Shown: piece by piece, positions 2,434 through 50,393 of the stretch
How positions within the stretch are numbered: the first letter of the stretch is position 1
Layout of the letters: the number at the start of each line of letters is the position of its first letter
Made by a program: the position numbers and the translations under genes
Virus record (IMG/VR): IMGVR_UViG_3300025450_001231
Source: a virus
Taxonomy: Duplodnaviria; Caudoviricetes
DNA: 64,000 bases
Reading direction: 5' to 3' (one strand)
The notes under the pieces: model-generated
Told to the model about the DNA's origin: nothing
The model's database searches: none
Seen by the model: the letters and a program-made list of their open reading frames with translations, nothing else

Positions 2434-2441
2434 TATAAATA
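2434..2441 (+). promoter_or_regulatory. T4-like late promoter of the transporter/holin/racemase operon
   Basis: TATAAATA 7 nt upstream of ATG 2449. Confidence 0.75.
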
Positions 2442-5139: not shown

Positions 5140-5825
5140 AAAAATTAGGCGTACTGGGTGGGATGGGCCCAGCTGCAGGTGCAGAATTTTTAGTAAGACT
5201 TATAAATCAAACTCCCGCTAAAAAAGATCAAGAGCATATTCCCGCAGTACTTTGGAGTGATCCCACAGTATCTGATCGTAGTACCAGTTTGTTAAATGGC
5301 GATGATTTACCATGGCCCAAACTTCGAGAAGGTATATTGGGATTAAGAACCGCAGGATGCGATCACATTGTTATACCTTGTAATACCGCACATTTTTGGT
5401 ATGATCGTTTACAAGAGTTAGGAGTGCCTATTACGCATATTGTAGATAGCGTAGCGGATCAATTGAGAGCCAGTGGAGTAGTAAACACCACCATTGGTAT
5501 TATGGGAACCAAAGCTACTATCAGTCAGGGACTGTATCAAAATCGTTTGTCGGCACAAGGTTGGAATTGTATAACCCCTACCAGCAGTGAAATGAACGAA
5601 CTGGTACAACCTGCTATTGATTTGATCAAATCTGGAAAAATGTTATTGGCAGAAGGTATGCTGAACCAAGTTATGGGCACACTAAACGATCAAGGTGCCA
5701 ATGCCATTGTATTGGGTTGTACCGAGTTACCATTGGCTATTCGCAGAACCAGTTTCAAAAATCGTCCTATAGTTAACAGTATTGATAGTTTAGTCAAAGC
5801 TGTACTAAATATTCAATGCGTATAA
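5136..5825 (+). CDS. aspartate/glutamate racemase
   Basis: LGVLGGMGP, CNTAH and GCTEL two-cysteine catalytic motifs; GTGA overlap with upstream gene. Confidence 0.92.
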   Translation: MKKLGVLGGMGPAAGAEFLVRLINQTPAKKDQEHIPAVLWSDPTVSDRSTSLLNGDDLPWPKLREGILGLRTAGCDHIVIPCNTAHFWYDRLQELGVPITHIVDSVADQLRASGVVNTTIGIMGTKATISQGLYQNRLSAQGWNCITPTSSEMNELVQPAIDLIKSGKMLLAEGMLNQVMGTLNDQGANAIVLGCTELPLAIRRTSFKNRPIVNSIDSLVKAVLNIQCV

Positions 5826-6751
5826 ATGAAATAATATTAGAAAACTTTACCAACGGTAAAGGATTTGGGGACAAGCATAAAGGCCCGGATGTGAATCTAC
5901 GGGAACAAGGTGTGGCGGAAAACTATCACAGTGATTTGATGAAACAAACTTATGCAAAATTCTTCAAACCTGCTCCTCCTAAAACAGTATCAGCAGTAAA
6001 GAAGTTTTTATCTGGTGTAATAATATCATTAGGAACTGCTCAAGATAATGACTATGACGAAGAAGAACCAGAAGAAATAAGTTGGGAACAAGATCTTGCT
6101 GATGTGAGAGAAGCATATAGTAAACTACGCGGTAATAGTTCTCCAAATTGGTTTGATATTGCAGATGCTGTCTTAAGTTACGATACAGAATTTAGAGAAA
6201 GTATGCTGGAGTGGGCAGAAGAAGAGTTAGGTAACGAATTAGTTGATTTTTTATGGCATGAAGTATGGGAAGCCAAACATAAAATCTCAAGATCAGATGG
6301 ATCATATAATGTGACTTTAGGTCATCAAAATGTACCAGGACAAAAAAATGATAGAGATTCTTTCAAAGAATGGGATCCAGAAAAAGATCCTCCCAATCCA
6401 TTTGCAAACCTCAGATGGCTAGTAATGATCAACGGTGAGCAAAAGATAAAGTTTGGCGGAGTAGGTAATAGCCAAGAAGCGGCTATGAAGACTGCGACAA
6501 ACTGGGCCAACAATCATGGCTACGAGCGTGAAGTACAAGCAGGTAAAGTTAAAGTTGTGCGAGACCAACAAGGTGTGGCAGAAAACTTTGCCGATGGTAA
6601 AGGTCCCGGTAAGCCTGGAGATAGTCAACGCCATGGAATACCCAAGCACGCCACCATGGCCGAATTAGAAAAAGCCAGTCACAGTAAAGGCCGCAAAGGT
6701 CAATTGGCACGTTGGCAAATCAATATGCGTCGTGGCCATAAAAAATCATAA
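5816..6751 (+). CDS. modular late protein (probable internal virion protein) with QGVAE junctions
   Basis: TAAATA 5806-5811 upstream; N-terminus MRINEIILE; two QGVAEN junctions; basic C-terminal module. Confidence 0.65.
   Translation: MRINEIILENFTNGKGFGDKHKGPDVNLREQGVAENYHSDLMKQTYAKFFKPAPPKTVSAVKKFLSGVIISLGTAQDNDYDEEEPEEISWEQDLADVREAYSKLRGNSSPNWFDIADAVLSYDTEFRESMLEWAEEELGNELVDFLWHEVWEAKHKISRSDGSYNVTLGHQNVPGQKNDRDSFKEWDPEKDPPNPFANLRWLVMINGEQKIKFGGVGNSQEAAMKTATNWANNHGYEREVQAGKVKVVRDQQGVAENFADGKGPGKPGDSQRHGIPKHATMAELEKASHSKGRKGQLARWQINMRRGHKKS
5904..6587 (+). repeat. 21-bp direct repeat AACAAGGTGTGGC(G/A)GAAAACT flanking a 663-bp in-frame module
   Basis: copies at 5904-5924 and 6567-6587, one mismatch. 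Confidence 0.9.
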
Positions 6752-6786
6752 ACTATTATCGAAAAGATGTTTAGAATCTGAGGGTG

Positions 6787-7057
6787 TTACAATCGTCCCT
6801 TAACCAGCCCTAACTGTTGAATTTTGGGATCACCGATCTTAAGCAAAAAACTTTTAGATCCGTTGTTATACCAGTGGGTCTTTTTCTTTGATTCAAAATA
6901 ATCCACAGAACTAACCCATCCGTTGGGAATAATGTCATTAAGTTTGAATCGTTTCTTTTCTTTTGTTGTTAGATTGTAGTAAAATTTTGTCCCATAAGAA
7001 CCATTATTGCTACCAATTGTTGACAAGATTAATAGTTTTATATATAATATAGAACAT
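6787..7057 (-). pseudogene. GIY-YIG-type homing endonuclease remnant with internal deletion and frameshift
   Basis: ATG 7057 gives MFYIIYKTINLVNNW-stop (GIY-YIG-like start); another frame gives GSNNGSYGTK and HWYNNG...GLVKGRL DNA-binding-type motifs; catalytic core absent. Confidence 0.65.
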
Positions 7058-7070
7058 GATGAGTAACCCT

Positions 7071-7078
7071 TATAAATA
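7071..7078 (+). promoter_or_regulatory. T4-like late promoter upstream of tmRNA
   Basis: TATAAATA. Confidence 0.65.
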
Positions 7079-7149
7079 CAGTTGAGGACAGTCCCGAGTA
7101 ACCCCGGGGTTGGTGTTAGTTACCGCTAATACCTTACTCAATTATTTAT

Positions 7150-44870: not shown

Positions 44871-44904
44871 TAAATACTGCAATATAATTAAATTATTGCA
44901 GTAT
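44871..44904 (+). promoter_or_regulatory. late promoter plus 11-bp perfect hairpin reaching the start codon
   Basis: TAAATA 44871-76; ATACTGCAATA 44874-84 / TATTGCAGTAT 44894-904. Confidence 0.75.
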
Positions 44905-47122
44905 GTACTCATTTGAACTATTTGAAGCTGGCGCAACCCGTATAGTTGTAACCTACCCCGGACGTTTTCAACCCTTCCATCAAGGGCACGCCGGGGTTTT
45001 TCACGCACTCCAAAAAAAGTTTGGTAATGACAATGTGTATATTGTTACCAGCAATGATCAAAGCAGTGCCAAAAGTCCTTTTAATTTCAGCGACAAATAT
45101 CAGTTAATGACTGCTGCAGGTATCCCTGCCAATCATATCATTGAAGGCAATCAAATGTACAAATTGCCCGAAGGTTTTGATCCTGAGACTACAGTATTTG
45201 TTACTGCAGTGGGTGCACCTGATGCCAAAAGATTAAACCCCGATTCTTATCTAAAGCGTGATAATGCTGCTTCAGGCAAAAAAGCCGGAGATCCCAGTTA
45301 CTTTTTAACTTGGGGGAAGAATGATGCAATGCCTGCTATGGAACACGGCTATGTAGTTGTAGTTCCTGAAATCAAAAAATCAATTGATATCGACGGACAA
45401 ACATACGATGTTAGCCATGGCACTGAATGCCGTAATCTATGGCTAAGACTAAAAGATAACGAAAAAGGTCGTGCAGAATTCCTAAAACAGTTGTATGGCC
45501 GTGCTACACCAGAATTAGCACACATATTTGATAAAATACAACCTGTTAGTGAAGATGAAATGCCTGACGGCGATTACAGTACTAGTCCTATACACGGCGG
45601 TAATGTAAGAGAAGATGCCAGTGGATATATTCCTAAGAATAAAAAAGAAGCACGCGATCCACGTTGGAGCAATGCACTAACCGTAGACGTGCATCCAGAC
45701 ACTCCAATGAAGAACCTACGTGCATTTAAGTTAGCAGAAACTGTCAACCCAGACGATTTTCATATACACGACACTGACAAGCTGGATCGTGTATTGGCAC
45801 ATTTGTGTAAAATGATTATACAAGGTCAACAGGATCGTCCGGACTACTACGGTATGGTTGCATCGGCAGTAATTGATCCAAAAAATCAAATTGCATTGGG
45901 TATAAATTATCTTGCCGACGAAGGCAAACGTGTGCACGGCGAACGTGCAGCTATAGACGAGTATAATAAAAAATACGGCGAGATTCCCGAAGGCAGTATC
46001 ATTGTTACTACACTAAGCCCTTGTTGCAGTCCAATGGATGAGCGTTACGGTGAAAGTTGCACAGACCTTATCAATGATACCAATGTACACAAAGTTTACT
46101 GTGGTTACAAAGATCCTTCACAAGAAGAAACAATTAAAAAATTATTCCATACTGCAGCTACTCGAAATGATAAACTACAGTCGTTATGCAAAGACTTTGC
46201 CGATACATTCTTGGGTGTAATCAGCGAAGACGAAGAAGGCGGCCGTGCAATGATGGGCAAGTTGGCTGACACAGGTAAGATTGTGCGCATACTGCGTAAG
46301 CAATATTCAGTGCCGTTTAGCCAAGAAAAAGAATGGTTATTGATTGATACTGACCCTGAAAAAGGCAATCGCGGCCTAGGTATCAAGTGGGTACCTGCTA
46401 GTACCAAGTTTACTTGGATTCGTCCTTTTAGAGAAAAGATTGACGAAAACAAAGACAGTTGGCAAAAACATAAAAATCCACGTGCAGGTGGAATGAGTAA
46501 AAAAGCAGTAAAAAGCTATCGTCGTAGTCATCCAGGCAGTAAAATCAAAACTGCAGTTACCAAATCTCCTAAGAAGATTAAAAAAGGCAGTGCAGATGCC
46601 AAACGTCGTAGTAGTTTTTGTGCACGTATGAAAGGTATGAAAAAGAGTCGTACCAGTGCTAAAACCGCACGAGATCCTAACAGTAATATAAACAAAAGCC
46701 TGCGTCGTTGGCATTGTAACGAAAGCATCAACTCTAATAGTGATGCAGAGTTTCCAAATTTATTGGCCAAGTTTTTGCCTATAGCAATGCAGGATTTGAA
46801 ACTTGATAAGTTGCCTAAAATCAAGTTGGAGAAACACATTCAAGACAAAGACGGACAAGCAACTTTTGGACGTTTTGTCAACAACACCTGTACTATACAC
46901 CTTGCTATAGCTGATCGTCATCCAGTGGATATTTTACGCACTTTGGCACACGAATTAACACACTACAAACAATATACACTCAATGAACTAACTTCTGGCA
47001 GTGGACGTACTGGTAGTCCTGAAGAAAACCAAGCACACGTTATGGCGGGTATTATTATGCGTCATTTTAACAAGAGTTTTCCCACTGGAGTTAACTTAAC
47101 TCCAATTGAATTAAAATCTTAA
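44903..47122 (+). CDS. multidomain late protein: nucleotidyltransferase + Zn deaminase + basic module + HExxH metallopeptidase
   Basis: YPGRFQPFHQGH; HGE...TTLSPC...C; RRSSFCARMKG; LRTLAHELTH. Confidence 0.75.
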   Translation: MYSFELFEAGATRIVVTYPGRFQPFHQGHAGVFHALQKKFGNDNVYIVTSNDQSSAKSPFNFSDKYQLMTAAGIPANHIIEGNQMYKLPEGFDPETTVFVTAVGAPDAKRLNPDSYLKRDNAASGKKAGDPSYFLTWGKNDAMPAMEHGYVVVVPEIKKSIDIDGQTYDVSHGTECRNLWLRLKDNEKGRAEFLKQLYGRATPELAHIFDKIQPVSEDEMPDGDYSTSPIHGGNVREDASGYIPKNKKEARDPRWSNALTVDVHPDTPMKNLRAFKLAETVNPDDFHIHDTDKLDRVLAHLCKMIIQGQQDRPDYYGMVASAVIDPKNQIALGINYLADEGKRVHGERAAIDEYNKKYGEIPEGSIIVTTLSPCCSPMDERYGESCTDLINDTNVHKVYCGYKDPSQEETIKKLFHTAATRNDKLQSLCKDFADTFLGVISEDEEGGRAMMGKLADTGKIVRILRKQYSVPFSQEKEWLLIDTDPEKGNRGLGIKWVPASTKFTWIRPFREKIDENKDSWQKHKNPRAGGMSKKAVKSYRRSHPGSKIKTAVTKSPKKIKKGSADAKRRSSFCARMKGMKKSRTSAKTARDPNSNINKSLRRWHCNESINSNSDAEFPNLLAKFLPIAMQDLKLDKLPKIKLEKHIQDKDGQATFGRFVNNTCTIHLAIADRHPVDILRTLAHELTHYKQYTLNELTSGSGRTGSPEENQAHVMAGIIMRHFNKSFPTGVNLTPIELKS

Positions 47123-47152: not shown

Positions 47153-47659
47153 ATGAACAGCAAAGATTTTTTACACGAAGGTATTGCGGAAGACGCACAT
47201 CAAATGCACATGGATCACGAAGTGCAAATGGCCCGCGAAGAGCTTTATCACGCTGCAGAACACGCAATTGCTCTGCACAAAATGTTGCAACACGTTAGCG
47301 AGCAACAGGGATTGGAAGGCTGGGTAAGTGCTAAAATTACGCTAGCCAATGACTATTTGAATACAGTCCGTGAGTATATGGAATACCAGTTAATGACACA
47401 GGACTCAACTCCTACAGATATGAGCCAAGAAGAACCAATCGACGAGCGCAACTCCATTGTTACCAAGTTAGCTAAAAATCAATTGCGCGGACATTACAGA
47501 CACGGTGTTAGAGAAAATGCCAGTGGTGGTGCAAGCAGTGCAGGCAGTGTTGCTACTGTAGTCAAAGGCGGTAGTGGCAAAACAAATTTATTAGGCGGCC
47601 CAGAGTGGAATGGTCCTAATCCATTTAAGAAAACTATTAAGAAACGAGCTGCCAAATGA
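47153..47659 (+). CDS. probable internal virion protein
   Basis: TAAATA 47123; MNSKDFLHEG; DHEV.MA..L...WV..KIT.A.DY. Confidence 0.6.
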   Translation: MNSKDFLHEGIAEDAHQMHMDHEVQMAREELYHAAEHAIALHKMLQHVSEQQGLEGWVSAKITLANDYLNTVREYMEYQLMTQDSTPTDMSQEEPIDERNSIVTKLAKNQLRGHYRHGVRENASGGASSAGSVATVVKGGSGKTNLLGGPEWNGPNPFKKTIKKRAAK

Positions 47660-48396
47660 GTTCAATGAAGCAGTTATTGGAAGCAGTCGACAAATATACT
47701 TTTGCCGGTGAGCCCGAGCAAAAGCCTGGAGACCAAGTTCGAGGCACAGACAAAGCCAAGCCAAGAAAAGATCACCGTCATCCATTTGCTGGTAAGTTGG
47801 TGGGTGGATGCGAAGAAAGCATTATGCTTGAGCTGGACAAAACTGCCAAAGCTACTTCAATGATTCGTCGTGTCAAAGAAGCATACGAACAAGTTGAAAA
47901 TTCAGAACCCAAGGCAGCTCCTAAAGACACAGTTGCTAAAACTTGGAACCAATTGAATCGCCAAGAACGCACAAGCGGTGTTAAAGGTCGCACTATTTGG
48001 AATCCGAAAATTCGCAAATATCAAGTGGTGTTTGATGTTCCTGCAAAACCACAACAAGTTAAAGAATACGGTGCAACACCAGGTGCTCCCAGTACCACAG
48101 GTGGTGCACAAAACCCAGATGCACAAACTACAGCTGCAAATGTACAAAAATCAATGATGGCCAAAAATAATCTCAGTAAGATTGCATCGGTTGATAAGAA
48201 TATCAATCCACAACAGGCCAATCAAGCATTGATGGCAATGGGCAATAGTAAAAATACCAATACACCTATTACTGGTCCACAACTAAGACAAACCAAACAA
48301 CTGGCAGACTTGGTAGGCGATGCACTCAGTGATCCTACCAAAGGTAGCCAAGTTGCTAACTTATTGCAACAAGTAGCAAGAAAGCAAGGACAATAA
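47656..48396 (+). CDS. probable internal virion protein
   Basis: MSSMKQLLEA; HPFAGKLVG; Gln-rich C-terminus. Confidence 0.55.
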   Translation: MSSMKQLLEAVDKYTFAGEPEQKPGDQVRGTDKAKPRKDHRHPFAGKLVGGCEESIMLELDKTAKATSMIRRVKEAYEQVENSEPKAAPKDTVAKTWNQLNRQERTSGVKGRTIWNPKIRKYQVVFDVPAKPQQVKEYGATPGAPSTTGGAQNPDAQTTAANVQKSMMAKNNLSKIASVDKNINPQQANQALMAMGNSKNTNTPITGPQLRQTKQLADLVGDALSDPTKGSQVANLLQQVARKQGQ

Positions 48397-50393
48397 TGTT
48401 TATTAACGATTTATTTGATAACAAAAAAATACAAGAAGCTGCTAATGCTGCTCAACAGGCTGCAATTGCCATTAATATGAAAAAACATCATCAAAAGCCC
48501 AAGGATATGAAAGAGGCTGAAGTAGATGAAATGTTTGGTTTTATGAGTCCTAAGAAACCTAGTCCCACTGACTATGCAACAAAAGTAAGCAGTGCCCCTA
48601 AGAAGTTAACTAAACAAGACTACGACGAATTAATGAAGCAGTCAGAAAGACCAAAAGGAACACAGGTTGTATATCATAACAGAGATGAATATGTTAAAGA
48701 TATGCAAAGAAGAAATATCAAGCCAGCAACCATTGAAGAAGAAGATATTGCAGAAGGCGAACGCAATATGAGTCGTGCTGCTAAAGGTGTAATGAAATAT
48801 GGCAAGGATGGTATGAAGGCATTGGCCAAAGCAGGTAGAGAAGGTGCCAGCGACGAAAAATTAGACACTATACGTGACAAGTACGACCATTATAACGAAA
48901 GTGTAGCAGAAGATTCAGAAAAACGTTGTATGCAATGTGGTATGAAAAACTGTAGTTGTACACCAGGTAAATGCAAGTGTAAGCCTGTTGCAGGTTGGGT
49001 ACCAGGCAAAGGTTTTAAGAAGGCTATGGAAGAAGCTGCATTAAACGAAAAATGGAGTCAAAAATACAAGAGCAGTATTAATTGCTCACATCCAAAAGGT
49101 TTCAGTCAAAAGGCGCATTGTGCCGGTAAAAAGAAACACAATGAAGATATAACTATGGAAATGACCTGCCCTGATTGCGGTATGTGCCAAACACACGGCA
49201 ATCTTAACGAAATTAAAAAGGGTCAAAAAGATTCAAATGGATACACCAAATGTTGGCCTGGCAAACACGCAGAAGGTACTAAGAAATCTAGTGTTACAGG
49301 TAAACAAGTAAGAAACTGTGTACCAAACAAAGGTGTGAAGGAAGGCCATGCAGACCAACAACGCAAAATCTTTAAGAAGAATGGTAAGCCAGTAGGCGAA
49401 GTTGGTATTGACCGTGAATCAAGTCCTGGCAACGGCCAATGGTATATGAAATGTTATGCTTACGACATAGACAATGCGGGCTACGATTCATACGAAGAAG
49501 CCGTTGAAGAACTAAAACATTGCTTAAAGCAAGGTGTGGCGGAAGGTGGTGCTGAGACAAGTTGGTCTAATGACACAGATACGATTACACTACAGGATAT
49601 TTTAGAATTAACCAAACACATTAAACAAATAAATTTACCGATAAACGATAATCTAAAGAGTAAACTACTTCATTGGGAAGGTAACCCAGAAGAAATAGAA
49701 AGAGTTAATCAAGTAACGGTGTCTAATCAATTTCCTATTTTAATTATGGTAAATGAGCAAGGTCAAATAGAATGGATCCTTGATGGCAACCATAGACTAC
49801 ATAAAGCAATACAGTCCCAAGCAAAAACAATACCTGCTAAACTTATTAGACCCAACAATCTTAACGACAAAGCAAAGAAAATATTTAATATAAAAGAACA
49901 AGGTGTGGCGGAAGGCCATCCTGAGGACGACGATGATCACGAGTGTTATGATTGCCGCGGCACTGGCGAAGGCCAACACGAAGGAACCAGTTGCAGAACC
50001 TGTGGTGGTACTGGCGTAGCACGCCCAGATCACGAAGAAGATGATTCAGATTATGAAGAACGCTTAAATTATCGCAGAAGATTTAGAGAAAGTAAAATCT
50101 ATTATAATGTAGTAGGTACACCTGCTGCAGCATTGCGTGAACAGTTTGGTATGAGAAAAGACCGCAATGGTTGGTACTTGAAAGAAACTGCTGGCCGTAA
50201 GCGTATACTTGAGGCACACAAAGCATTTGGTAATCCTTTGACAGAAGGTATGAATCTAGCTGCTTATAATGGCAGTACTGCTATCATCGGCGACGGTAAT
50301 GCCATTAGTCCAGTGGGCAGTAATCCACGCAGACAACAAGAATTGATCCCTACACGAAATAGTAAAGCGAAGAAAAATGGAAGAATTAGTTAA
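48396..50393 (+). CDS. modular polyprotein-like late protein with ~12 Glu-bounded modules (incl. ParB-like and DnaJ-type zinc finger)
   Basis: KGVKEG and two QGVAEG junctions; ILDGNHR; CxxCxGxG...CxxCxGxG. Confidence 0.7.
   Translation: MFINDLFDNKKIQEAANAAQQAAIAINMKKHHQKPKDMKEAEVDEMFGFMSPKKPSPTDYATKVSSAPKKLTKQDYDELMKQSERPKGTQVVYHNRDEYVKDMQRRNIKPATIEEEDIAEGERNMSRAAKGVMKYGKDGMKALAKAGREGASDEKLDTIRDKYDHYNESVAEDSEKRCMQCGMKNCSCTPGKCKCKPVAGWVPGKGFKKAMEEAALNEKWSQKYKSSINCSHPKGFSQKAHCAGKKKHNEDITMEMTCPDCGMCQTHGNLNEIKKGQKDSNGYTKCWPGKHAEGTKKSSVTGKQVRNCVPNKGVKEGHADQQRKIFKKNGKPVGEVGIDRESSPGNGQWYMKCYAYDIDNAGYDSYEEAVEELKHCLKQGVAEGGAETSWSNDTDTITLQDILELTKHIKQINLPINDNLKSKLLHWEGNPEEIERVNQVTVSNQFPILIMVNEQGQIEWILDGNHRLHKAIQSQAKTIPAKLIRPNNLNDKAKKIFNIKEQGVAEGHPEDDDDHECYDCRGTGEGQHEGTSCRTCGGTGVARPDHEEDDSDYEERLNYRRRFRESKIYYNVVGTPAAALREQFGMRKDRNGWYLKETAGRKRILEAHKAFGNPLTEGMNLAAYNGSTAIIGDGNAISPVGSNPRRQQELIPTRNSKAKKNGRIS
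49530..49915 (+). repeat. 17-bp perfect direct repeat CAAGGTGTGGCGGAAGG flanking a 369-bp in-frame ParB-like module
   Basis: copies at 49530-49546 and 49899-49915; degenerate copy AAAGGTGTGAAGGAAGG at 49329. Confidence 0.9.

Follow-up and report, generated by a model that had tools for sequence, protein, structure and literature searches.

How did 741 bp, bounded by direct repeats and kept in frame, come to lie within what would otherwise be a small and compact phage gene? The gene in question is an open reading frame (ORF) of 311 amino acids at 5816-6751 (+ strand) of a 64,000-nucleotide stretch of viral DNA (IMG/VR record IMGVR_UViG_3300025450_001231; Duplodnaviria, Caudoviricetes), the whole of which we call the window, and it holds two pairs of direct repeats, one inside the other. 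A preliminary description of this locus took the repeats for the marks of two nested insertions of cargo into a core gene. That view is partly supported: it was right in substance, in that a conserved gene carries exchangeable in-frame cargo, and wrong in mechanism, in that there are no nested self-duplicating insertions. The population data show that in-frame cassettes are exchanged at base-pair-precise joints among co-occurring phages. The explanation that we favour as a whole, and hold with moderate confidence, is that a lineage of uncultured giant T4-like freshwater phages has a single-copy "chassis" gene, of which the ORF is the local version, with the variable part lying between a leader and a highly conserved C-terminal module (the C-module). 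The parts of the gene referred to below are these.

5816..6751 (+): target ORF, the final gene of its operon; its ATG overlaps the stop codon of the Asp/Glu racemase gene by 10 nt
5816..5842 (+): leader MRINEIILE, resembling the T4 capsid-targeting sequence (CTS) MKTYQEFIAE
5839..5862 (+): left copy of the outer repeat (ENFTNGKG), in which the first 7-8 residues of a C-module survive as a decaying relic; also a 7-bp hairpin
5855..5905 (+): relic of the tail of a GNAT cassette, GKGFGDKHKGPDVNLRE here versus GAGFWDKHKGPGQNVWE in relatives
5906..5920 (+): linker 1, QGVAE, DNA CAAGGTGTGGCGGAA; upstream boundary of the cargo, with loose ends of contigs at 5906/5907
5921..6568 (+): cargo cassette, 216 aa, acidic (net charge -13)
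6569..6583 (+): linker 2, QGVAE, DNA CAAGGTGTGGCAGAA; downstream boundary of the cargo, with loose ends of contigs at 6571/6583
6580..6603 (+): right copy of the outer repeat, ENFADGKG, the true start of the C-module, with a 7-bp hairpin
6584..6748 (+): C-module, 55 aa, NFADGKGPGKPGDSQRHGIPK...LARWQINMRRGHKKS, net charge +9, pI 11.1; a small predicted helical domain

In the protein the order is thus leader (residues 1-9), NFTNGKGFGDKHKGPDVNLRE (10-30), QGVAE (31-35), cargo NYHSDL...VVRDQ (36-251), QGVAE (252-256) and NFADGKGPGKPGDSQRHGIPKHATMAELEKASHSKGRKGQLARWQINMRRGHKKS (257-311), with a scar of 26 residues between leader and cargo.

The repeats themselves are as previously described. The two copies of the outer pair (5839-5862 and 6580-6603) are identical at 21 of 24 positions, lie 741 bp apart in the same frame and read ENFTNGKG and ENFADGKG, and those of the inner pair (5904-5924 and 6567-6587), identical at 20 of 21 positions and 663 bp apart, again in frame, both read QGVAEN. 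When the codons of the ORF were shuffled 200 times, no pair of 24-mers reached 21 matches (the maximum, seen in 3 shuffles, was 20). The compact gene that would be left after removal of the 741 bp also exists in nature (proteins P0209 and P0140, IMG/VR loci L033 and L043).

This last point follows from a word-indexed search of 5.8 billion proteins, made in two length ranges, which recovered 925 relatives of 171-545 aa and 300 of 30-170 aa. Nearly all of these matches are confined to the last ~55 residues, that is, to the C-module, at ~90% identity, and the parts upstream are very diverse. Most of the 107 members tallied against Pfam have no family there; the assigned domains are GNAT (16), cytidine/dCMP deaminase (15), DUF6934 (9), NT5C (2), ParB_N (2) and nucleotidyltransferase (1). 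ImmA-like domains are also among the cargo types found elsewhere, ImmA-like or DUF6782 domains being present in only a few relatives, and some members combine several domains (deaminase and GNAT in P0037, deaminase and ParB in P0109, ParB-like and nucleotidyltransferase in P0100). Many unrelated cargoes, in more than 1,000 proteins, therefore occupy the same junction, and alleles with no cargo at all, of 63-68 aa, stand beside them: P0209 is MRINEIIKE-NFADGRGPG...RRGKKK (63 aa), P0140 begins MRAEEFIIE-NFADG..., and P0193, P0222 and the IMG/VR loci L033, L043 and L049 have the same type of leader. In about one tenth of the relatives the whole gene is a 63-residue protein made of leader and C-module. 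Both empty-site alleles and alternative inserts, for which the preliminary description had suggested a look at related phages, are thus present, and its idea of cargo within a core gene stands insofar as it concerns a conserved gene with exchangeable in-frame cargo; the mechanism of nested insertion does not.

In each of four large related IMG/VR phage records (G001-G004) the C-module occurs once per record, with differing middles: G002 (328 kb, 92% complete) has the empty form, G001 and G003 an open frame of 365 aa with a 5'-nucleotidase-type cargo, and G004 an open frame of 449 aa. One C-module per record combined with different middles makes this a single-copy gene of the lineage with a variable middle. 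The module has 22 invariant columns in 40 sequences, and its proportions of nonsynonymous and synonymous differences (pN and pS) are 0.098 and 0.68 (pN/pS ~0.14, with silent sites saturated). Between G001 and G002 its conservation (~89%, counted from the sequences) is roughly on a par with that of the major capsid protein, at 80%, the scaffold having 60%. Of cultured phages, Sinorhizobium phage Phosso has the nearest capsid protein (71%). Searched with tblastn against 50,697 deposited phage records, T-even phages included, the C-module had no match, and neither the whole ORF nor the empty form matched any family in Pfam, PHROGs or NCBIfam. The C-module is a core protein found across the lineage and under strong constraint, and the deposited phage genomes lack it. 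Its AlphaFold model (predicted local distance difference test, pLDDT, 79) is a small domain of helices, the C-terminal one long and basic; Foldseek found no match to this model in the PDB, and the ESM Atlas returned only unnamed viral clusters (score 0.89). A match of 15 residues to dodecin in a profile search of PDB sequences (E = 0.44) was taken as chance.

The module is not always terminal. It is internal to some very long ORFs (1215-1539 aa), with more modules after it (L016:7616-11263, L031:3769-8238, L045:127-4746, L064:139-4602), and P0014 likewise extends beyond its own C-module.

What, then, marks the borders of the cargo? The inner repeat was not created by an insertion: it encodes a universal linker, QGVAE, which recurs in hundreds of genes. 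A search for QGVAE-NFADGKG in all its synonymous encodings gave 17 distinct contexts, their upstream cargoes being unrelated, and 12 of these have the DNA CAAGGTGTGGCGGAA, though these phages seldom use the codons GTG (20%) and GCG (10%). The codons of the C-module next to the linker vary freely: the pairwise synonymous difference is 0.18 in the linker versus 0.68 in the C-module, where none of 49 five-codon windows falls below 0.39. The linker 15-mer and two synonymous versions of it were also scanned in IMG/VR, the comparison being of copies per listed locus and not of totals. Among the matches listed, 33 of 120 loci with CAAGGTGTGGCGGAA hold 2-4 in-frame copies, as against 0 of 118 and 0 of 119 for the two synonymous 15-mers; in the same matches, 94% of the CAAGGTGTGGCGGAA sites lie in the reading frame of long ORFs, and the spacing is divisible by three in 42 of 47 cases. 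The simplest reading of this fixation of the linker is frequent crossover at the joint with the homogenisation that results from it. Recombination of the T4 type requires merely short patches of homology (PMC2839356). A literature search for 'QGVAE' returned papers on alpha-synuclein only.

The stretch is present in freshwater and lake metagenomes, and the contigs of three DNA runs (X2, X8 and X11) were mapped to 5300-7100. In the lake samples X8 and X11 the flanks have a depth of ~10 versus 570-1500 over 5910-6580, the cargo being 50-100 times deeper; in X2 the flank depth is 22-27 and that of the cargo 42. The contigs that match the cargo depart from the window sequence exactly at 5906/5907 and 6571/6583, that is, at the two linkers, and lead into at least three upstream contexts and two downstream ones, of which one has a stop codon directly after the Gln and the other reads QGVAE-GREKKKPEEK. 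Low-depth flank contigs, for their part, span each 15-nt linker into sequence specific to this cargo (records 15 and 17 of X2, 23 and 27 of X8); because they cross the linkers in this way, both junctions of the gene are real. A point on the other side is that the contigs are short unitigs, none of which spans the whole gene. Contigs from an RNA library match part of the cargo only, and can neither be assigned to this phage nor be taken as evidence of transcription. Joints that skip from 5862 to 6604 or from 5920 to 6584, as excision of the segments at this locus would leave, were found in none of the contigs of four runs over 5300-7100, which is not evidence of absence, since contigs drop rare variants. 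Taken together, these data leave cassette exchange at the linker well supported. Cassettes swap between genes, and between co-occurring phages, by recombination at the 15-nt joint CAAGGTGTGGCGGAA.

Beyond the gene, at 6764-7100, the depth in X8 and X11 is 65-250 with many variant positions, versus ~10 for the racemase flank; this part of the window contains a minus-strand ORF (6787-7026) and the region before a tmRNA gene, and its depth and variants show that it is also common to more abundant relatives.

The outer repeat has another history. Residues 1-18 of the protein match the empty gene of L033 (MRANEFIIENFADGKGPG), and residues 14-35 correspond to a GNAT-cassette tail (GAGFWDKHKGPGQNVWEQGVAE in L085 and L089, GKGFWDKH... 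in L101), the two matches overlapping at GKG. The tail relic is 68-73% identical over 22 aa to L085, L089, L101 and L108, and is also seen in P0015 and P0016. At the positions where true C-modules have Ala (163 of 169 contexts) and Asp (169 of 169), the left copy has Thr and Asn, which marks it as a relic in decay. A partial start of the C-module also stands ahead of the cargo in at least six more family members, each with a different breakpoint (after GK, GK(M), GKHPGR, GRPG, RHGI or ~40 residues; seven different breakpoints are counted in all), so that the duplicated stretch ranges from 7 to ~40 residues; copies of such variable length are not target-site duplications of fixed length. The left copy, which had been taken for the border of an insertion, is thus a partial duplicate of the C-module fused to a GNAT-tail relic, and outer repeat and tail together fit a scar left when two family members recombined out of register or were fused. 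Both copies of the outer repeat also form a 7-bp hairpin, CTTTRCC-NNN-GGTAAAG (5845-5861 and 6586-6602; -5.5 and -6.9 kcal/mol), and natural encodings of ENFADGKG average -5.0 versus -2.7 kcal/mol for all synonymous ones, a comparison that is uncorrected for codon bias. Cassettes also swap by out-of-register crossovers in this hairpin-forming start of the C-module, with partial duplicates left behind, and the hairpin may be their hotspot. In the relic copy, the change from Ala to Thr converts a G-T wobble into an A-T pair.

For the cargo of the target gene, an exhaustive HMMER search of 1.8 billion representatives yielded only 18 relatives, all in multi-module proteins and always bounded by hydrophobic-x-Glu. 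The boundary (marked here by a slash) is QGVAE/NYHSDL in P0005, P0011 and P0242 (904 aa) and GVSE/, GVTE/ or GLAE/ in other relatives, and in P0013 (MKINEILNE/NYHSDL) and L004 (MRFNEIISE/NY) the cargo directly follows the leader. Its AlphaFold (AF2) model (pLDDT 73) consists of a helical bundle (5924-6298), a disordered stretch of ~35 residues (6305-6406) and a small beta-beta-alpha-beta domain (6413-6562). Foldseek and VIA-align found only generic helical-bundle matches for this model (Z <=6.5, below the tool's significance level for helical proteins).

With these data the other possible origins of the locus can be weighed. Two successive mobile-element insertions, each making its own target-site duplication, would account for two nested pairs of in-frame direct repeats and for the existence of empty alleles; we nevertheless think this very unlikely, as the inner repeat is the universal linker just described, the segment between the left copies of the outer and inner repeats matches a GNAT-cassette tail and not the end of an insertion, the partial C-module copies of relatives are of no fixed length, and family and fold searches revealed no transposase, integrase, intein or homing-endonuclease domain in or beside the cargo. 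An intein-like or other self-splicing insertion in a small basic protein would equally be in frame, in a conserved small gene with empty alleles. This cargo, however, starts with Asn-Tyr-His, where no Cys, Ser or Thr nucleophile is available, and ends with Arg-Asp-Gln instead of His-Asn; it belongs to no Pfam or NCBIfam family, is predicted to form a helical bundle and a small alpha/beta domain, had no Hint match in fold searches (which is negative evidence only), and is found at the C-terminus or in the middle of unrelated proteins, so that we give this idea practically no credence. A more technical concern is that an abundant cargo was misthreaded by the assembler, via the linker repeats, between the racemase flank and a C-module gene. 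The cargo is indeed 2-100 times deeper than the flanks, the unitigs break at the linkers and no contig spans the gene; the flank unitigs of independent samples nonetheless run through the linkers into the cargo on both sides, the depths of the left and right flanks agree (22 versus 27; 9.6 versus 8.7), and an independent 106-kb contig encodes a full-length protein (P0001) with 98% identity to the 311-aa protein, other members having the same layout. We consider such a chimera highly improbable.

There remains the question of what the chassis is for. Its leader has the consensus M-R/K-A-x-E-F-I-x-E (65 leader-bearing family members), and the strict form follows 8 of 633 first ATGs in G002 versus none of 1398 internal ATGs (in the window, 1 of 160 versus none of 386). 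It resembles the CTS of T4, a sequence of ~10 residues that is removed by one cut (PMC8442874, PMC9026906); this is a resemblance of pattern and not a demonstrated homology. The prohead proteases of the T4 family cut after Glu, at a short three-residue motif h/A-x-E (PMC5694885, PMC9026906), and the junctions between modules conform to [V/I/L/M]-x-Glu. Of 169 distinct contexts, 168 have Glu immediately before NFADG, and the third residue before the junction (P3) is V, L, I or M in 152 of 169 versus a background of 19%, even when the sequence upstream is unrelated to QGVAE. The leader itself ends in [VILM]-x-E and replaces the linker directly before both cargo and C-module. The relatives G001 and G002 encode a Peptidase_S77, an L-x-E site is conserved in their gp23-type capsid protein, and their gp22-like scaffold has 25-28 [VILM]xE sites per 363 residues, including a conserved K-x-VAE/NF. 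The cleavage site of the major capsid protein could not be mapped from T4 gp23, the T-even capsid alignment beginning after the propeptide.

From these resemblances a coherent scheme can be drawn, to which we give somewhat better than even chances as regards capsid targeting, processing by a protease and injection. The chassis gene would be transcribed late, and its leader would target the protein into the prohead, as the T4 sequence does; a T4-type prohead protease would then cut after Glu at ILE/N, VAE/N and VAE/N, freeing leader, 26-residue scar peptide, cargo and basic C-module inside the capsid, from which cargo and C-module would be ejected into the host with the DNA. Any cargo would in this way borrow the signals for expression, targeting and processing of a conserved packaged protein. 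A further step, which we put forward tentatively and rate below even chances, is that the 15-nt sequence serves at once as crossover site, at which co-infecting giant phages swap effector cassettes, and as code for a head-protease cut site that later sets each cassette free in the capsid, in a plug-and-play chassis whose C-module would be an essential, packaged, DNA-associated protein of a new kind that carries the cargo along.

Several facts weigh against this scheme. Packaging, cleavage and ejection all rest on motif resemblance, and [VILM]-x-E is short, with ~1.2 sites per 100 aa expected by chance; the Glu could simply be the first residue of each module. The window is without head genes, the head protease and head genes being seen only in relatives whose DNA polymerase is 64-78% identical, and the gene lies away from head genes (in the racemase operon here, near the DNA polymerase gene in relatives). 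A conserved C-terminal module is not a feature of the T4 internal proteins, and fixation of the linker at silent sites points to forces at the level of DNA, so that the motif could be kept for recombination alone. The rival proposal is an ordinary cytoplasmic multi-domain protein that is neither packaged nor cleaved, its real cassettes being shuffled at the DNA joint, with QGVAE as a flexible spacer and recombination site and the leader as no more than a conserved N-terminus. In its favour, a linker fixed at silent sites could be maintained by forces on the DNA alone, and the target gene is not beside head genes. Yet [VILM]-x-E is also kept before NFADG in the absence of the canonical DNA joint (WIMNE, KLSLE, HMVKE, HLYKE, EHVLE), so that conservation of the peptide motif does not depend on the 15-mer; the leader shares this end motif and substitutes for the linker before cargo and C-module; and the relatives encode a T4-type protease and a site-rich scaffold, with late-promoter motifs present. 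We therefore regard the cytoplasmic proposal as unlikely, while giving it real weight. In-frame cassette exchange and the constrained lineage-wide C-module hold as findings independently of the packaging claim.

Some other proteins of these relatives may be mentioned beside the leader and the scaffold. G002 encodes a leader-bearing protein of 265 aa, MRLNELLLE/NNRQDLYHGT... (L111:9175-9972, - strand), with a weak, sub-threshold match to the catalytic domain of PARP/ADP-ribosyltransferase (E = 0.003), which recalls T4 Alt, a packaged ADP-ribosyltransferase; directly downstream of its major capsid gene lies a 67-aa ORF with the leader MRINELIFE (L124:10468-10671, + strand). The scaffolds of G001 and G002 (L079:17-1108, with L077) begin with MLD..KQL.E, resembling the MLTIDLFEE-type starts of many C-module proteins, and end with IRKLAGLK(V); the upstream neighbour of the scaffold gene encodes an extremely acidic protein of 298-338 aa.

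Among known systems, the closest are T4's Ip1, Ip2 and Ip3, which are internal proteins, together with Alt. Both systems have an N-terminal leader of ~10 residues that ends in hydrophobic-x-Glu (EFIxE in both) and is shared by otherwise unrelated proteins, and both belong to T4-type phages; a gp21-type protease, which in T4 cuts after Glu, is encoded in the present case by the relatives G001 and G002. The T4 internal proteins are highly basic (PMC8442874), as is the C-module here (net +9, pI 11.1), but not the acidic cargo (net -13). They share only their leader and sit in recombination hotspots (PMC12373910), and the hypervariable Ip loci of T-even phages, as described in the literature (PMC8442874, PMC9026906, PMC3012670, PMC12373910; Repoila et al. 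1994 as cited there), recall the present locus in being shuffled by recombination at conserved flanking sequence. Here, in contrast, the variable part lies inside one single-copy gene, between the leader and an ultra-conserved C-terminal module; the cassettes can be chained by a fixed in-frame linker; the exchange joint is within coding sequence and not between genes; much of the cargo consists of enzymes and not of small inhibitors; and packaging is putative. No sequence homology to Ip1, Ip2, Ip3 or Alt was found with Pfam, PHROG and NCBIfam or by tblastn of the C-module in the 50,697 phage records.

The polyvalent proteins (Iyer et al. 2017, PMC5512222) similarly unite unrelated enzymatic domains (ParB-like, GNAT, deaminase, nucleotidyltransferase, peptidase) in one polypeptide, for which delivery with the DNA and processing into separate units have been proposed (PMC5512222). 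Disparate activities are likewise joined in P0037, P0109 and P0100, whereas neither module of the target gene has an assignable activity. For classical polyvalent proteins the proposed cutter is a built-in zincin-like metallopeptidase (MPTase); in our case family searches found no peptidase domain in the 311-aa ORF, and the head protease would do the cutting. Nor has a uniform linker, a common leader or a common C-terminal module been reported for them. As to the late or virion context of polyvalent proteins, late-promoter motifs are seen here, with neighbours that are transport and racemase genes, or replication genes in relatives. As regards exchange, the PeSL shuffling of T4-type phages (Arbiol, Comeau et al. 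2010, PMC2839356) also uses short conserved linker DNA as the preferred crossover site and gives insertion, deletion and replacement alleles between closely related phages, around non-essential modules; PeSLs, however, move whole genes, being promoter/terminator cassettes of ~100 bp in intergenic positions, whereas the present joint has 15 nt, lies inside the reading frame, preserves it and encodes a peptide motif. Finally, the ejection and inner-body proteins of the giant phages phiKZ, 201phi2-1 and SPN3US (PMC5694885, PMC7411985) are head-internal proteins, many of which a gp21-related protease cuts after Glu at a three-residue motif, multiple propeptide sites being common; they differ from ours in belonging to another lineage, with propeptides of >100 residues and no cassette exchange, universal linker or shared C-module.

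If the packaging scheme is true, abundant uncultured freshwater giant phages would load arbitrary enzymes into their capsids and deliver them to the host, among them acetyltransferases, deaminases, ParB-like nucleases and nucleotidases. The principle of the T4 internal proteins would then extend from single small inhibitors to exchangeable enzyme cassettes, and the cargoes would form a catalogue of candidate effectors of first-minute host takeover or anti-defence. For any enzyme placed between the joints, late expression would be followed by packaging, release and injection. The system would have its engineered counterpart in the packaging of CTS fusions in T4 nanoparticle work, and selection would act on one short sequence twice over, on the DNA as a recombination joint and on the peptide as a cleavage site.

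The genomic setting of the ORF deserves a few words. Two further features delimit the operon that it closes.

2434..2441 (+): late-promoter motif TATAAATA, T4-type (perfect consensus match only), 8 nt upstream of the first gene of the operon (start 2449)
6856..6881 (+): terminator-like hairpin followed by a T-run, ~100 nt past the stop codon and likely the end of the operon (consensus scan only)

The neighbours of the target ORF in this operon are genes for nutrient uptake and transport and the racemase gene, not head genes. The preliminary description spoke of a late gene, and this label has the promoter motif as its sole basis, so that the ORF is at most a putative late gene. Among the relatives, TATAAATA stands just upstream of the C-module gene in 11 of 38 distinct upstream regions versus 0.3% of random 60-nt windows. 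In the window as a whole its number is not above chance (8 observed versus 6.75 expected); seven of the eight motifs are on the + strand, with positions including 2434, 7071, 8391, 18977, 32803 and 38797, and several precede ORF starts by a few bases (2449, 8430, 18990, 38826).

Of 58 loci, at least 34 have the C-module gene at a distance of 2-4 kb upstream of the gene for family-B DNA polymerase (polB). This position is occupied in the window by polyprotein genes (44903-47122 and 48396-50393), and the C-module gene is displaced to the end of the racemase operon; among 82 loci searched for synteny, none has a racemase, holin-T-like or UDP-glucose dehydrogenase gene adjoining the C-module gene. 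The only other ORF of the window with a loose leader-type start (MNSKDFLHE/GIAE...), at 47153-47659, belongs to this polyprotein locus upstream of polB. The polyprotein family also has a second basic module at or near protein ends, DUF6321 (PF19846), which covers residues 527-603 of 739 in ORF 44903-47122, lies towards the C-terminus in P0011 and in L030 follows directly on the leader; it may stand in for the C-module.

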